A program made the translations under genes and the position numbers. From contig CABXJB010000003.1 in assembly GCA_902512415.1 (NCBI GenBank), positions 1 through 51,775 on the forward strand: a stretch of 51,775 bases of DNA, written 5' to 3'. Under the pieces are notes generated by a model. That model ran no database searches. It was not told the DNA's origin and worked only from the letters and a program-made list of their open reading frames with translations. Shown piece after piece: positions 44,519 to 51,775 of the stretch; the first letter of the stretch is position 1; the number at the start of each line of letters is the position of its first letter. The stretch comes from an uncultured Alphaproteobacteria bacterium. GTDB taxonomy: Bacteria > Pseudomonadota > Alphaproteobacteria > HIMB59 > GCA-002718135.

Positions 44519-45934
44519 ATGAATAAAATTTATTATGAAAGTTTATTAAAAGCAATAGAAAGAAATAAACCTAACATAGCTTCAACTAAAAAAAGACTAG
44601 AAGATGCTGGTGTAAAATATGTTTTATCAAGTTGGATTGACATGCACGGTATTCCAAAAACTAAACCTGTGCCAATGAGTGATTTTGAAGCTTTATGTAT
44701 GGGGAAAGGTCCTCAGTTTGCTGTTCATTCAATTTCTTTTGTTCCAGAATTAACTCCGGCTGATTCTGATCAAGTTATGCTTCCTGATCTTAATTCTGTT
44801 TATATTTGTCCATGGGATAAAACAACAGCCATAATATTTGCAGACTTATTTTGGGAAGATGCACCCTATAATGTTTGTCCAAGACAGGCTCTTAAAAAAA
44901 TTATTCAAGAAAAACAAGATCAAGGATACCAAGGTTTTGCAGGTATTGAGCCTGAATTTATTGTAATGAAATACAATGAAAAAGGTGAGCCAGTCAAAGC
45001 AATAGATAACGATCCTCCTCATGGTATTCAACCAAGAAGACAAGCATTTGGCTATGATGTAGAGTATTCTTTAGACTCAATGCATTTTTTAAAAGAAATG
45101 ATTGATATATTGGGTGAATTAGGATGGGACTTACATGATGTTGTTGCTGAGGGCGCTTATTCTCAATTTGAATTAGATTTTCATTATACTGATTTGCTTC
45201 AAATGGCAGATAGATTAGTATTTTTAAAAATACTTTTAAAAGAAATAGCAAAAAAACATGATATGTTTGTAACTTTCATGCCAAAACCTACTATCGGGGA
45301 TTGGCGATCAGGAGGACATATAAATTTTTCACTTAACGATATTAAGAAAAATGCAAATGTTTTTAAAGACGGTGATAAATGGTCTCAAGATGCAATGCAT
45401 GCGGTTGGTGGTTTACTTGCTCATTCAGAAGCCATAACAGCTATCACTTGCCCTACAGTAAATTCATATAATGGATTGGTACCAACAGTTGGTGGTTTTG
45501 AAGGAGGGGTTCATACTTGGGCACCAACTAACATTACATATGGACATAATAATCGTTCTGCTCAGTTTAGATTACCACAAAATAGATATTGTATAGAGAA
45601 CCGTGCAGCTGATTTAACAATGAATGTTTATTTGGCACTTGGCATGACTATATCAGCCGCAGTAGATGGCATTCAAAATAAAACTGATCCTGGTAAGCCT
45701 TCCGACTTTGATCTGTATACTTTAAAAGATGAGGATATGAAAAAACTTGGTATTAGACGTCTTCCTCGAAACTTACTGCAAGCAACTGCAGCTTTACAAA
45801 AAGATAAACTTGCAGAAAAAGTAATGGGTAAAGTTATGTTAAATTCCTATGTTCAGTATAAAAATGATGAATGGGAAAGATATCATCAGGCTGTTACCGA
45901 CTGGGAAGTAAAAGAATATCTAAGGTTATATTAA
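44519..45934 (+). CDS. Glutamine synthetase-like gamma-glutamylamide ligase
   Basis: GIEPEF, EGAYSQFE, TFMPKP, SGGH, NNRS and IENR. The N-terminal region diverges from GSI. Confidence 0.88.
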   Translation: MNKIYYESLLKAIERNKPNIASTKKRLEDAGVKYVLSSWIDMHGIPKTKPVPMSDFEALCMGKGPQFAVHSISFVPELTPADSDQVMLPDLNSVYICPWDKTTAIIFADLFWEDAPYNVCPRQALKKIIQEKQDQGYQGFAGIEPEFIVMKYNEKGEPVKAIDNDPPHGIQPRRQAFGYDVEYSLDSMHFLKEMIDILGELGWDLHDVVAEGAYSQFELDFHYTDLLQMADRLVFLKILLKEIAKKHDMFVTFMPKPTIGDWRSGGHINFSLNDIKKNANVFKDGDKWSQDAMHAVGGLLAHSEAITAITCPTVNSYNGLVPTVGGFEGGVHTWAPTNITYGHNNRSAQFRLPQNRYCIENRAADLTMNVYLALGMTISAAVDGIQNKTDPGKPSDFDLYTLKDEDMKKLGIRRLPRNLLQATAALQKDKLAEKVMGKVMLNSYVQYKNDEWERYHQAVTDWEVKEYLRLY

Positions 45935-45964
45935 TTAATATAAAATAGATTATATTTTACTATA

Positions 45965-46981
45965 ATGAATATTAATGATTATGAAATTTATAATCTTGGT
46001 AATGTAGAGCTTGTATCAGGTGAAACTTTACTTTCGGCTAAGCTAGCTTATAAAACATACGGTTCATTAAATTCAGATAAAAGTAATGTAATAGTTTTAC
46101 CTACTTTTTATACTGGTACTCATAATAGAAATGAAGGTTTCTTTGGTACGAATAGAGCTATTAATCCTGATAAGCATTTTATAATATCTATAAATTTATT
46201 TGGAAATGGCTTATCTTCATCTCCAAGCAATGCAGATGAAAAACAAAAAGGTTCACAATTTCCTTCAATTTCTTTGTTTGATAATGTTGCTTGCCAACAC
46301 AAACTTTTAACGAAGCATTTAAATATTAACAAAATTGCATTAGTAACTGGATGGTCCATGGCAGGTTGCCAATCCTATCAATGGGCTTCTCAATATCCAG
46401 ATATGGTTGATGCCATCTTACCTTTTTGTGCTTCAGCCAAAACTTCAGAACATAATTTTGTTTTTTTAGAAGGTGTTAAAGCTGCCCTTTGTGCTGATCC
46501 AGCTTGGAATAATGGTAATTATTCTTCACCTCCACTTAGAGGTTTAAAAGCTTTTGGAAGAGTTTACGCTGGTTGGGCTTTTTCTCAGTCTTTTTTTAGA
46601 GAAAAGGCATATAAAATTTTAGGTTTCCAAAATGTTGAAGAATTATTAGTTGATTGGGAAAATGATCATGTCAGCAATTGGGATGCAAATAATCTTTTAA
46701 CAAAACTATTAACCTGGCAAAAAGGAGATATTTCTGTTGGAAAAAAATATAATGGTAATTTTATAGAAGCGCTAAAAAGTATTAAAGCTAAGACTATAAT
46801 TATGCCATGTAGCCACGATCTATATTTCCCGCCTGAAGATAATGAATTTGAAATCAAACATATTAAAAACTCTGAATTAAGAACTTACAACTCCATCTGG
46901 GGGCATTGTGTTGCCAATCCAGGGAATGATAAAGGTTTTGAAATTGCACTAGATCAAGCAGTTAATGACCTTTTAGGATAA
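45965..46981 (+). CDS. Alpha/beta hydrolase, homoserine acetyltransferase (MetX)-like
   Basis: LAYKTYGSLN, FGNGLSSSPSN, GWSMAG, DLYFP and WGH. Confidence 0.85.
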   Translation: MNINDYEIYNLGNVELVSGETLLSAKLAYKTYGSLNSDKSNVIVLPTFYTGTHNRNEGFFGTNRAINPDKHFIISINLFGNGLSSSPSNADEKQKGSQFPSISLFDNVACQHKLLTKHLNINKIALVTGWSMAGCQSYQWASQYPDMVDAILPFCASAKTSEHNFVFLEGVKAALCADPAWNNGNYSSPPLRGLKAFGRVYAGWAFSQSFFREKAYKILGFQNVEELLVDWENDHVSNWDANNLLTKLLTWQKGDISVGKKYNGNFIEALKSIKAKTIIMPCSHDLYFPPEDNEFEIKHIKNSELRTYNSIWGHCVANPGNDKGFEIALDQAVNDLLG

Positions 46982-47482: not shown

Positions 47483-47510
47483 AAAAGGGCAGTAAAAATA
47501 CTGCCCTTTT
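47483..47510. terminator. Rho-independent terminator closing the amt unit (potentially bidirectional)
   Basis: AAAAGGGCAGTA-aaaa-TACTGCCCTTTT with A/T tails. Confidence 0.85.
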
Positions 47511-47526
47511 AATTTATAAAATAAGT

Positions 47527-47700
47527 TTACTTGTTGTTTTCTGCTGTCTCTGATTCATGTCTTGCAGCAGCAATAATTACACCTAAGCATATGCAAGCTG
47601 TAACTAAAGTGAATAGAACAAGCATGCCAGATGAGCCTGCCCATGTAAAATAAGCATCTACACCCTCCCAACTTGCTGATTCTCCAGGAAATGTATTCAT
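47527..47700 (-). CDS. 57-aa single-pass membrane protein directly downstream of amt (not in ORF track)
   Basis: Manual translation MNTFPGESASWEGVDAYFTWAGSSGMLVLFTLVTACICLGVIIAAARHESETAENNK. AAGGA SD, lies between the amt stop and the terminator. Confidence 0.8.
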   Translation of the reverse strand: MNTFPGESASWEGVDAYFTWAGSSGMLVLFTLVTACICLGVIIAAARHESETAENNK

Positions 47701-47720
47701 AATATGTTCCTTTCTCTCTG

Positions 47721-49001
47721 TTACTGGTTATAAGCTTGTAATCCAAGCTCAGCTTTATCAATACCTGCTTTTTGAACGTGATCTGGGACACGTAACCAAC
47801 CAGCCATTTTCATAATATATGAAATAACATAGCCAGGTACAAATCCAGTTAAAGCCATTACAATGGCGCCAACTATTTGACCCGTTAGATTTGAAGCTGG
47901 AATTTCTCCTGCTGCTGGAAAGCCAGAAGCAAAAAGACCTACACACAACATACCTAAGATACCACAAACACCGTGAATTGATACCGCTCCTACACAGTCA
48001 TCAATTTTGAATGTGTTATGAAGCCAATTATTTGCAGGAATAATTACACACCCTGCAATTGTACCAAGAATAAATGCAAAGCCAGGATACCAAATATCAA
48101 GACCACCAGCACATATAAATATACCTGCTAGTCCACCTGACATCATCCAAAACGGATTTCCTTTACTCCACCAGAAAGCACCGATCATGCCTCCAGCTAG
48201 ACCCATCAAAGTATTGAATGCAAAAGAAGATAATGTAGCTGGTGCACCATAAATATTTACCCAACCTCCATAATCTGATCCTGCCCAAATTAAACAAGCT
48301 CCTAGGAATCCAAAGAAACCTACAATCAAAGTTAATAAACCAACAAAAGATAGAACTAAGCTATGACCTTCAAGATCATTTGCAGAGCCATCATCATTAT
48401 ATTTTCCTATTCTTGGACCTAGATTCAAGAGTACTCCAAACGCAAACAATCCTGCAACAGTATGAACACACCCTGCAGCTGCTACATCATGGAATCCCCA
48501 ACTAGTTACAAGCCATCCATCTGGATGCCATCCCCAAGAAGCTGCTAAAATCCAAACTACAGATCCTAAAACAACTGCTAGAAATACGAATGCACTAATT
48601 CTAATTCTTTCAATTACAGCTCCTGAAAAAATCGAAGCTGTTGTACATGCAAACAATGTAAATGCAGCCCAGAATACACCAGTAGCCTGGTCACTTAGCA
48701 TTGGTCCCATTGAAACATTCCATGGAACTCCGTATCCTTCTAAATCAATAGGTACAAATCCTCCTGGAAAAGCTAGGTAGATCCACCATCCAAATAGCCA
48801 AAATGTTGGGATCATAAATGCAAATGCTAATAAATTTTTAACACCTGAAGAAACAGCGTTTTGCATTCTTGTAGCGCCTACTTCATACATTAAGAAACCA
48901 ACGTGAATAATAATCATAAGTCCTGTACACCACCAATAGTAAGCTTCCATGCCCACGTTTGCTTGTGTGGTGACAAAAACATTTAATTCTTCCAACGTCA
49001 T
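47721..49001 (-). CDS. amt: Ammonium transporter (Amt) family protein, atypical (possible methylamine transporter)
   Basis: SGAVIERIR, HDVAAAGCVH, LGPRIGKY and IDDCVGAVSIHG. AGGAGG SD. Confidence 0.92.
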   Translation of the reverse strand: MTLEELNVFVTTQANVGMEAYYWWCTGLMIIIHVGFLMYEVGATRMQNAVSSGVKNLLAFAFMIPTFWLFGWWIYLAFPGGFVPIDLEGYGVPWNVSMGPMLSDQATGVFWAAFTLFACTTASIFSGAVIERIRISAFVFLAVVLGSVVWILAASWGWHPDGWLVTSWGFHDVAAAGCVHTVAGLFAFGVLLNLGPRIGKYNDDGSANDLEGHSLVLSFVGLLTLIVGFFGFLGACLIWAGSDYGGWVNIYGAPATLSSFAFNTLMGLAGGMIGAFWWSKGNPFWMMSGGLAGIFICAGGLDIWYPGFAFILGTIAGCVIIPANNWLHNTFKIDDCVGAVSIHGVCGILGMLCVGLFASGFPAAGEIPASNLTGQIVGAIVMALTGFVPGYVISYIMKMAGWLRVPDHVQKAGIDKAELGLQAYNQ

Positions 49002-49091
49002 TTTGTCCTCCTTACGAGTTTATTTCAAAACAACCGCTTAACTCATTAAGTTTAAGGGAAATGAAAAAGGCTAAAAGAAAAAACTATAACT

Positions 49092-49146
49092 GCGTTCCTT
49101 CGGTTTTAACCTACTTCCGTCTCACTCAAATTATGAGATGAACGAT
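49092..49146 (-). ncRNA. Glutamine riboswitch (glnA RNA motif)
   Basis: The minus strand reads AUCGUUCAUCUCAUAAUUUGAGUGAGACGGAAGUAGGUUAAAACCGAAGGAACGC: P1 CGUUC/GAACG, P2 UCUCA/UGAGA, GGAAGUA, P3 GGUU/AACC, GAAG. Located upstream of amt. Confidence 0.88.
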
Positions 49147-49257
49147 AAATAATGATTTATATCTAGACTTTTATTAGCTGATTCAACATTAAAATTTACT
49201 TTTTAGTGGATCATGGGTATATTTTTTCCCTGATTTTAGGCATTTTACTATTTATTG

Positions 49258-50136
49258 TTAATTAATTTTTTTATTTTCACGAAGTTCATAAGCTGTGTGA
49301 GTTATTATAATCAAAATTATAACAATTCCTCCTATGATTGTTTTTGTTGATGGTTGCTCATGAATAACAAACCAAACCCAAATTGGACCAAGGATGGTCT
49401 CTAGAATAAAAAATATTTCAACTTCATATGCTGGTATATATCTCGGAGCAATAGTCATACAGGCCAATGGAATAACTAAAAATAAACCCATTACAAAAAT
49501 AAAAAACAATTGATCTGAATTAATGAAAAGTAATGCATTAAATGAATTTAAAAAAACTAAAGGAATTACTAGAGTAAATAATTTTGCTATCAAAAGTGCA
49601 GGAAGAAGATCAACCAGTTTACTAAAACGTATCACTACAGCACTACCTCCAATAAATATCGCAGTCAGTAATCCAAAAAAATCTCCAAAAAGACGCCCTC
49701 CTTGATAAGACTCATAAAAAATAAATAATATAGTCACAAAACAAGCAATAATTGTTACCCACATTCTTTTACTAGGATATTCTTTGATAAATATTGAGCT
49801 AAGAATGGCGGTTGCAAAAGGAGTTAACGCAATCATTATTAGTGTATTTGCAACATTAGTATTTTGGATGGATATTACAAACGTTGTGTTACCTAATGCA
49901 ACTAAGACAGCATACAATAAACCTGGCAGCCCGGTTATCAGTAAAGAGTGAAGAAAGTTTTTTTTATAATATAAGAGTAAGAAAATTAATAAAAAAAAGA
50001 ACGGAATCAATCCTCTATAAAAAAGTAACTCCCAAGAAGGAATATTGATTAAACGAATAAACAAAGAATCTGGGGTAATAAGTAATACACCAATTAAAGA
50101 TAAGAAAATTCCTTTTTGTTTATCTGTTAAATCCAT
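49258..50136 (-). CDS. DMT/EamA family transporter
   Basis: About 10 TM segments, LITPDSLFIRL and LETILGPIWVW...EQP. Confidence 0.88.
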   Translation of the reverse strand: MDLTDKQKGIFLSLIGVLLITPDSLFIRLINIPSWELLFYRGLIPFFFLLIFLLLYYKKNFLHSLLITGLPGLLYAVLVALGNTTFVISIQNTNVANTLIMIALTPFATAILSSIFIKEYPSKRMWVTIIACFVTILFIFYESYQGGRLFGDFFGLLTAIFIGGSAVVIRFSKLVDLLPALLIAKLFTLVIPLVFLNSFNALLFINSDQLFFIFVMGLFLVIPLACMTIAPRYIPAYEVEIFFILETILGPIWVWFVIHEQPSTKTIIGGIVIILIIITHTAYELRENKKIN

Positions 50137-51107: not shown

Positions 51108-51775
51108 ATGGCTATAAATCTAGCGGAGATCGCAAAAAAGAAAAAAATAAAATACTTTTTAATAAGTTATGTGGATTTTTTTGGAGTACTTAGATCTAAA
51201 TTAGTTCCTGCTCAATCTATAAAAGAAATGCAAAAAGAAGGTGCGGGATTTGCCGGTTTTTCTACATATTTAGATATGTCTCCATCTGACCCAGATATGG
51301 CAGCAATACCTGATCCGAATAGCTTCATACAACTACCCTGGCAAATGGATGTGGGTTGGTTAGCGGCAGATTTATGGATGGATGGTAAACCTGTTGATGC
51401 ATCTCCTCGTGTTATGTTGCGCAATCAAATTAATAAATTAGCAAAAAAAAATATGTATTTAAAAAGCGGTGTTGAATGTGAATATTTTTTAATTTCTCCA
51501 AGTGGAGATTCCATAGCTGATCAAAAAGATATTGCTGATAAACCATGTTATGATCAATCTGCGCTAATGCGTCAGTATGATTTGATTAGAGGTATATGTG
51601 ATTCAATGATTATGCTAGGATGGGGTCCATACCAAAACGATCATGAAGATGCTAACGGACAATTTGAAATGAATTGGGATTTTTCAGACTGCCTACAAAC
51701 GGCTGACCGTCATGTTTTTTTTAAATTTATGGTTAGAACTCTTGCAGAAAAGGTGGGTTTAAGAGCTACCTTTAT
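51108..51775 (+). CDS. glnT: Type III glutamate-ammonia ligase / gamma-glutamylmethylamide synthetase (3'-truncated by window end, not in ORF track)
   Basis: Manual translation MAINLAEIAKKKKIKYFLISYVDFFGVLRSKLVP...GAGFAGF...GVECEYFL...KPCYDQSALMR...YQNDHEDANGQFEMNW. AGGAG SD. Confidence 0.92.
   Translation, partial: MAINLAEIAKKKKIKYFLISYVDFFGVLRSKLVPAQSIKEMQKEGAGFAGFSTYLDMSPSDPDMAAIPDPNSFIQLPWQMDVGWLAADLWMDGKPVDASPRVMLRNQINKLAKKNMYLKSGVECEYFLISPSGDSIADQKDIADKPCYDQSALMRQYDLIRGICDSMIMLGWGPYQNDHEDANGQFEMNWDFSDCLQTADRHVFFKFMVRTLAEKVGLRATF

Follow-up and report, generated by a model that had tools for sequence, protein, structure and literature searches.

The glnA RNA motif, the aptamer of the type-1 glutamine riboswitch (Rfam family RF01739), was described by Weinberg 2010 (PMC2864571) from cyanobacteria and marine metagenomes, often in tandem, with downstream genes for ammonium transporters, glutamine synthetase, GOGAT and P-II. 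Sherlock et al. 2022 (PMC9481103) report 157 doublets and 4 triplets of this riboswitch, and RF01739 has also been reported in SAR11 and OM43 phages and in SAR86 genomes. Klahn 2018 (PMC6212724) found that the switch upstream of gifB turns expression ON, and proposed that a helix masking the ribosome-binding site is melted by glutamine. In that account, such riboswitches are placed only in cyanobacterial genomes and marine metagenomes, the effect of glutamine on the metagenomic glnA leaders and their taxonomic affiliation are given as not known at the time, and negative regulation is deemed "reasonable" for them. Smith et al. 2013 (PMC3870248) speculated that amt paralogues of Pelagibacter are under riboswitch control by way of other, uncharacterised RNA motifs. 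Here, a stretch of DNA of 51,775 nucleotides (nt) from an uncultured Alphaproteobacteria bacterium (the window; positions 1 to 51,775 of contig CABXJB010000003.1, GenBank assembly GCA_902512415.1) is analysed, in which an original prediction had placed a glutamine riboswitch before a gene for an Amt-family transporter (amt) and a microprotein gene. The element is a genuine and complete type-1 glutamine riboswitch aptamer in the leader of the unit formed by amt and a gene for a protein of 57 amino acids (aa). The literature on which the prediction drew, with the motif known from cyanobacteria and marine metagenomes and gifB as an ON switch, agrees with Weinberg 2010 and Klahn 2018.

The aptamer occupies 49089..49146 on the minus strand, a strand that the original prediction had left unstated, and carries the core ACGGAAGUAGG ... 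GAAGGAACGCA. When the whole window is searched against Rfam 15 with cmscan, RF01739 is found at 49146-49089 with 68.0 bits, against a gathering threshold of 35 (E-value 4.7e-13). The match spans model positions 1-53 of 53 without truncation and is the only one above gathering in the window. A whole-genome search places RF01739 at the same coordinates, and no second aptamer was found either in the window with Rfam 15 or on the contig by the whole-genome search at E<=0.001, such that the aptamer is single as well as complete, as had been predicted. Its 68 bits is the top score among all RF01739 matches of the genus. In the Rfam alignment, the core letters AUCGUUCA..., ACGGAAGUAGG and GAAGGAACGCA are all identical to the consensus, and the three-helix junction of P1, P2 and P3 is present with the conserved core ACGGAAGUAGG ... 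GAAGGAACG. In a fold with P1 forced, P1 is formed by 49144-49140 with 49097-49093, P2 by 49138-49133 with 49125-49120 and P3 by 49111-49109 with 49104-49102, all on the minus strand. The same three helices are recovered by RNAalifold from 14 orthologous leaders, with a P3 pair that changes on both sides (column 38:49 is GC in 9 orthologous leaders, AU in 3 and GU in 1). The Rfam structure line for RF01739 shows no pseudoknot; the ligand-bound fold is said, from work by Ren in 2015, to have a long-range pseudoknot or linchpin pair and an E-loop. The window aptamer would be expected to bind L-glutamine. It lies on the sense strand of the amt leader, 87 nt from the ATG where about 90 had been predicted, and the span 49002-49146 runs from the 5' end of the aptamer to the base before the start codon. 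This position before amt is kept in 41 distinct leaders.

The Synechocystis gifB (IF17) type-1 switch is alike in its RF01739 single aptamer, its place in a 5' leader and a proposed control of initiation via pairing with the ribosome-binding site. The host there is a cyanobacterium rather than a HIMB59-type alphaproteobacterium, and the target is a glutamine synthetase inhibitor rather than an Amt transporter. The polarity was tested as ON for gifB, whereas the amt leader is modelled as OFF, and the nucleotides next to P1 were proposed as the mask in gifB, whereas here a pyrimidine-rich linker of about 75 nt lies between. With the environmental glnA-motif RNAs of Weinberg 2010, the locus shares the motif, the class of led genes including ammonium transporters, the marine origin and the frequency of tandems in its relatives. 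Those RNAs were hostless, whereas here a host group, the led genes, a split between singlets and doublets and a candidate platform can be defined. The association of the motif with amt has been known since 2010, the novelty is modest and the result would not surprise a riboswitch specialist. What is added is the host group, a family distribution opposite to that of GlnD, the singlet/doublet split and an OFF model in which the linker alternates between partners.

The window has about 30% G+C, and its source assembly comprises 925 kb at 61.6% completeness. The nearest amt loci, with 95-99% aa identity, are on contigs labelled uncultured Alphaproteobacteria bacterium (single-cell assemblies), HIMB59-LRMED-201 and Pelagibacteraceae bacterium, and more distant loci are labelled HIMB59 MED-G104 and MarineAlpha5. 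HIMB59, once SAR11 subclade V, corresponds to the AEGEAN-169 group (PMC10308909), and the word "riboswitch" is absent from the text of that paper. Judged by these neighbours, the host is a HIMB59/AEGEAN-169-type marine alphaproteobacterium, and so the predicted non-cyanobacterial host is borne out. In searches of the main text of open papers, nothing was found that places RF01739 in HIMB59/AEGEAN-169 or fixes its polarity outside cyanobacteria. The region from 45.2 to 51.5 kb is collinear as one piece in nine other assemblies at 79-91% nt identity, such that the aptamer does not sit at an assembly joint and the region is not chimeric, a concern raised with the original prediction. Three further genomes (L034, L035 and L068) resemble the window over 47555-49188, and the similarity stops at 49148-49188, at most about 40 nt from the 5' edge of the aptamer, to start again in another neighbouring gene. 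In these genomes two EamA genes are missing, and the module of aptamer, amt and microprotein gene stands directly beside a gene resembling glutamine synthetase III. Given a break so close to its edge, the aptamer travels with amt.

The glutamine riboswitch is a near-universal trait of the host family. Within the order, RF01739 occurs in 77 of the 79 genomes of the window's family and in 0 of the 71 genomes of the only other family sampled. When the class was sampled with one genome per family, a match was found in 1 of 150 other families (149 without), in which a single aptamer precedes a CP_ATPgrasp gene (genome G168). The source genome holds three aptamers: the window singlet and two in tandem that precede a gene for a type-I glutamine synthetase. 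Across 25 genomes of the genus, among them that of the window, there are 127 aptamers, arranged as 62 doublets and 3 singlets, and all 3 singlets precede the divergent type of amt found in the window. Downstream genes were inspected in 20 regions from 8 genomes of the genus, with families confirmed on representatives and the remainder assigned by N-terminal sequences. Both singlets among these (2 of 2) precede a divergent amt followed by the 57-aa open reading frame (ORF), and the 23 doublets precede glnA (7), a marine-type amt (12) or a CP_ATPgrasp_2/Alpha-E operon (4). The set of genes led by glutamine aptamers in the family thus comprises glnA, two marine-type amt, the circularly permuted ATP-grasp/Alpha-E operon and the divergent amt, the last being the only gene of the genus that is led by a single-copy aptamer. 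The tandem switches share with the window the aptamer, the genomes and nitrogen-assimilation genes downstream; they differ in that the doublets carry another, strongly conserved element of about 35 nt and have no built-in anti-aptamer. Among 80 loci with an amt orthologue, a regular expression for the aptamer core matches in 13, at 104-114 nt before the ATG. Rfam was run on 40 of the 80, and 8 of 9 loci with the core pass (L030 fails), as do 0 of 31 loci that lack it.

Two observations on the aptamer-led genes stand on their own. The operon of a circularly permuted ATP-grasp (PF14403) and Alpha-E (PF04168) is led by the aptamer in two separate alphaproteobacterial families (L109, L112, L115 and L121; L123 1462-56 on the minus strand), which hints at a possible role of the operon in nitrogen metabolism. 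The conserved element of about 35 nt follows the second aptamer in every doublet (L104-L122), and reads ...AAUUUCCAUAGCUAAGCAUGA before the amt and ATP-grasp genes and ...AGAUUUCAUAACUAGAGCAUGA before glnA.

GlnD, a uridylyltransferase, together with P-II forms the usual proteobacterial protein cascade that senses glutamine and controls glnA and amt. The riboswitch would sense the same metabolite for the control of the same genes, as an RNA rather than as a protein cascade. GlnD (TIGR01693) is found in 0 of the 79 genomes of the window's family, as compared to 60 of the 71 genomes of the sister family, such that within the order its distribution mirrors that of the riboswitch inversely. In the rest of the class, GlnD is present in 104 of 150 representatives, among them the aptamer-bearing G168, and many small genomes have neither GlnD nor the aptamer. 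P-II was found in 5 of 5 genomes searched (the window's own and four relatives), and the only match of the window's own genome (G000:C1:56600-56884, minus strand) covers model positions 1-90 of 102. The originally predicted "protein-free" nitrogen control is therefore overstated, in that GlnD is what the family lacks. Nothing reached the cut-off for NtrC in any of the 5 genomes, and so NtrC cannot separate the two families. The setting resembles that of the Pelagibacter SAR11_0818 and SAR11_1310 leaders (Smith 2013), which also belong to a streamlined marine alphaproteobacterium without a full P-II/GlnD/NtrBC cascade and are leader RNAs thought to respond to nitrogen. The motifs there are not RF01739, and their ligand is uncharacterised. 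As a separate observation, in two near-complete genomes of the genus (G044:C1:376581-377084 and G047:C1:45516-45951) a distance of 60-130 nt separates the end of the only P-II gene from a glutamine aptamer behind it, a layout that resembles a glnB-glnA arrangement with the riboswitch between the genes.

The candidate expression platform is the linker at 49015..49088 on the minus strand, which is 61-62% pyrimidine and includes CCUUA at 49057-49053, both as predicted. Within it, almost all of the aptamer has its complement in an anti-aptamer segment (49084-49035), and two tracts, CCUU (49057-49054) and CUUA (49050-49047), match the Shine-Dalgarno region by complementarity. The Shine-Dalgarno sequence itself, UAAGGAGG at 49014-49007, is part of the ribosome-binding site at 48999..49014, which ends with the AUG of amt (49001-48999, from the ORF list); AACUCGUAAGGAGG is near-invariant across orthologous and singlet leaders. 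Without constraint, the window leader folds at -40.5 kcal/mol into an extended hairpin, with nearly the whole aptamer paired to the linker. In this hairpin, CUCAU of the aptamer is paired with AUGAG of the linker, UUUGAG with CUUAAA, GAGA with UUUC, GGAAG with UUUUC, AGGUUAAAA with UUUUAGCCU and GAAGGAAC with GUUUUUUC. Forcing of P1 was used as a stand-in for the glutamine-bound state. The P1-forced fold, at -29.8 kcal/mol, frees the linker to pair with AACUCG, UAAG, GAGG, AUG and the first codons, and the unpaired probability of the Shine-Dalgarno sequence falls from 0.41 to 0.04. Pairing of UGAGUU (49045-49040) with AACUCG (49020-49015) is seen in the folds, and AUGAGUU...AACUCG directly before the Shine-Dalgarno sequence is conserved in 13 other aligned genomic leaders. 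The small hairpin of CUUAA (49050-49046) with UUAAG (49041-49037) that had been predicted is present in the window; it is not conserved in those 13 leaders and does not hold up as a functional hairpin.

The same change was modelled in 41 distinct singlet leaders, comprising 32 stretches from one metagenome scan together with genomic leaders. With P1 forced, accessibility of the Shine-Dalgarno sequence is lower in 32 of the 41, and the drop is at least 0.25 in 19. A CUUCC motif, which is complementary to GGAAG, an invariant part of the aptamer core, and also to GGAGG if one G-U pair is allowed, is present in the linker of 24 of the 41 leaders, as compared to 1.5 +/- 1.3 with shuffled linkers. 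In 30 of the 41 aptamers, the own linker outperforms unrelated linkers. A control with shuffled linkers was applied to 8 leaders, and in 6 of them the native change was reached by 2-7 of 60 shuffles. In all of 15 leaders, aptamer plus linker fold more stably than the mean of their shuffles (z from -0.4 to -3.2). In 6 of the 15, no more than 4 of 100 shuffles match that stability, and for the window leader 0 of 100 do so (z = -3.2). The platform helices are pairable in 85.9% and 88.2% of cells across 14 leaders, as compared to 10-55% in slid registers. The behaviour extends to the singlet before an ATP-grasp gene in the other alphaproteobacterial family, in which the unpaired probability goes from 0.73 to 0.01.

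Based on the architecture, the composition, the modelling and the physiology of the led genes, OFF is the best-supported polarity of the amt leader and is fairly probable. The other aptamer-led genes of the family, including glnA, assimilate nitrogen, which supports OFF on physiological grounds. In the absence of glutamine, the pyrimidine-rich linker would pair with the purine-rich 3' half of the aptamer and with the P2 arm, including pairing of GGAAG(U) with the CUUCC-type motif, such that the ribosome-binding site would be largely open. In the presence of glutamine, P1 and the core would be locked and the linker set free. The freed linker would then fold back on AACUCG-UAAGGAGG and the start codon, such that the site would be masked and translation turned OFF. 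The models thus suggest that control of the amt leader is exerted at the level of translation.

Several results weigh against this OFF model, and against the wider proposal that the aptamer replaces GlnD. When P1 is forced, 3 of the 41 leaders open and 6 are about unchanged. The ensemble without the aptamer is favoured by 1.7-12 kcal/mol in all 41 leaders, which is more than weak glutamine binding is likely to repay at equilibrium, and so control would have to be kinetic. Two leaders fail the shuffled-linker control (L027 with 39 of 60 and L034 with 53 of 60), and L030, in which the drop is strong, has an aptamer under the Rfam threshold. Compared with shuffles of matched composition, the fold of linker plus ribosome-binding site shows no gain in stability (z from -1.8 to +0.7), and much of the masking effect therefore comes from pyrimidine content. 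No compensatory covariation was found in the three proposed platform helices across 14 leaders, one side being invariant, and RNAalifold on the 14 leaders supports only the aptamer and a 3-base-pair CUC/GAG stem. Applied to 19 tandem leaders, the same model yields no difference between the two states in 17 and the opposite change in 2, and it yields no difference in the own glnA leader. OFF is expected physiologically for glnA, yet the model is silent there, and so its power to read polarity is unproven. The only member of the class that was tested experimentally is an ON switch. With regard to GlnD, the inverse distribution within the order is a single phylogenetic contrast rather than a statistic, and strict exclusivity of riboswitch and GlnD is rejected at the level of the class, given that G168 has both and coexistence is therefore possible. 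The predicted OFF polarity thus stands as the outcome of modelling in 32 of 41 leaders, without covariation in its favour and with silence in the tandem leaders. Carrying polarity over from the glnA and tandem leaders was tried and dropped for want of a usable signal; the gap between the free and the P1-forced ensemble is 0.4-8.7 kcal/mol in doublets and 1.7-12 in singlets.

Of the other explanations, the one that survives best is that a functional aptamer acts on the transcript, via Rho-dependent or intrinsic termination in the 87-nt linker or via ligand-dependent access of a ribonuclease (RNase), with OFF or either polarity as the outcome. The linker, rich in U, has UUGUUUUG behind its AUGAG arm, orthologous leaders without the riboswitch have a CUCAU...GAUGAG hairpin with a U run directly after it, and failure of the translational model for the tandem leaders implies that another mechanism exists in the family. 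However, a terminator scan finds no terminator-like site between the aptamer and the ATG, and the strong Shine-Dalgarno sequence with its invariant flank fits control of initiation, as does the masking in 32 of 41 leaders. Effects of Rho and RNases are unreadable from sequence, and on balance this explanation is considered unlikely.

Slightly less likely again is an ON switch like that of gifB (Klahn 2018), the only tested member, which activates expression. In this case glutamine would open the ribosome-binding site, and the accessory divergent Amt, perhaps a low-affinity or export-type paralogue, would be produced under ample nitrogen. A possible wiring is that the bound aptamer frees AUGAGUU to pair with AACUC, which keeps AACUC off the GAG of the Shine-Dalgarno sequence. 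The pairing potential for such wiring is present across the 14 leaders, given that AUGAG can pair with CUCAU of the aptamer (89.7% of cells) or GAGUU with AACUC (88.2%), and RNAalifold retains the CUC/GAG stem on the Shine-Dalgarno sequence. That stem comprises no more than three invariant pairs, however, and the 3 of 41 leaders that are modelled as more open with P1 forced are set against 32 that model the opposite. The order of aptamer, linker and ribosome-binding site also means that closing of the aptamer releases the linker rather than captures it, and the same aptamer class leads glnA and two more amt in the same genomes.

A relic, in which the aptamer sequence is conserved but its control over the accessory amt has been lost, is very improbable: the element is lost or decayed in relatives (67 of the 80 orthologous loci lack it by regular expression, none of the 31 of these tested with Rfam passes, L030 is under the Rfam threshold and L041 and L048 keep just a ATCGTTCAT remnant), but the window aptamer has the best score in the genus with every core position intact, and the aptamer, the CUUCC-type tract and the flank of the ribosome-binding site are all retained, with near-fixed spacing, in 41 distinct leaders.

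The translational OFF model can be joined to the distribution of GlnD in a wider and more tentative proposal, for which the chances are put somewhat below even. In this proposal, the aptamer would have taken over glutamine sensing from GlnD in the host family, and would wire glnA, three amt and the ATP-grasp/Alpha-E operon together as an RNA-sensed nitrogen regulon. The amt singlet would be its translational OFF switch, with one pyrimidine tract that pairs with either the aptamer core or the Shine-Dalgarno sequence, and both polarity and platform would be unlike those of the only tested member. Of the two questions in Klahn 2018, that of the carriers is answered for one group, the abundant and uncultured HIMB59/AEGEAN-169-type alphaproteobacteria. 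The question on the effect of glutamine becomes testable on a short RNA (49146-48990), with OFF through release of a pyrimidine-rich mask as the prediction. If true, one aptamer class would serve nitrogen control with both polarities, and a streamlined ocean bacterium would have exchanged part of a protein signalling cascade for RNA.

The led gene, at 47721..49001 on the minus strand, encodes a divergent Amt-family transporter of 426 aa whose N-terminus is not like a signal peptide. Membership in the Amt/MEP/Rh family, as predicted for this ORF, is established by PF00909 (E-value 4.9e-60, 203.8 bits against a cut-off of 23.2, residues 24-424). The protein is below the cut-off of TIGR00836 for "ammonium transporter" (206.8 as compared to 343.3 bits) and below that of the "marine subtype" TIGR03644 (176.4 as compared to 514 bits). 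The doublet-led amt genes of the genus pass TIGR03644 with 573.8 and 534.4 bits. By these scores, the window protein belongs to a divergent Amt subfamily, and ammonium as its substrate is not implied. The originally predicted "amine uptake" is a reasonable guess from the neighbouring genes, but is overstated given the divergence of the protein from curated families.

The microprotein gene, at 47527..47700 on the minus strand, is co-oriented with amt and lies 20 nt downstream. Its 57-aa product is a single-pass membrane protein, with one hydrophobic stretch and a conserved W-E/D-G-x-x-A-Y-F-T ... H-E, and no family match was found in Pfam or NCBIfam. By tblastn, the ORF is directly behind the amt orthologue in 73 of 80 loci, as far as Methyloceanibacter and Thiotrichales records. 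The unit is closed by a strong intrinsic-terminator-like hairpin at 47483..47510 (minus strand), with 5 G-C pairs in its 12-pair stem, a 4-nt loop and a T run behind it. It is the one terminator-like site found when 2 kb were scanned, as compared to 1.2 expected. The aptamer is therefore in the sense leader of a unit of amt and microprotein gene that ends at this hairpin, as the original prediction had it. At the other end, a promoter-like TTAACA-17-TAAAAT (49233..49261, minus strand) matches the consensus at 10 of 12 positions and overlaps the stop codon of the upstream EamA gene. Given that 6 promoter-like sites were found in the 2-kb region as compared to 7.1 expected from shuffles, and that this best site is no better than chance, it may be taken as a possible, weakly supported promoter of the amt unit.

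Part of the stretch is contained in 20 of 21 listed sequencing runs. Contigs of 4 RNA runs, from 4 studies, cover 47512-49061 with at least 90% likeness and bridge the junction of amt and the microprotein gene. Coverage of 49062-49300 by the metatranscriptome contigs is zero at 90% likeness, which is uninformative on the leader since the contigs come from related strains and the leader diverges; for the same reason they give no reading on transcript start, attenuation or expression level.

The amt unit is flanked by two glutamine-synthetase-like ligases, a MetX-fold hydrolase and two EamA transporters, and genes further away resemble enzymes for the breakdown of methylated amines and osmolytes. 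One of the ligase genes (TIGR03105, 366 bits, under the cut-off) is paired with that for the MetX-fold hydrolase at 44519-46981 on the plus strand. The other, at 51108-51773 on the plus strand and at the end of the window, is the glutamine synthetase III-like gene, with 307.8 bits over its first 222 residues. These two loci stand on either side of the unit, within an island whose genes are like those for the breakdown of methylated amines and osmolytes.

Two minor observations concern related leaders. In both states modelled for the own glnA leader (L002, minus strand), the start codon is covered by pairing of AUUUCAUAA with UUAUGAAAU. The orthologous amt leaders without an aptamer (L037-L085) keep the CUCAU...GAUGAG hairpin followed by the U run, and together with the remnants in L041 and L048 and the decayed aptamer of L030 they look like stages of loss, or perhaps like an ancestral leader.

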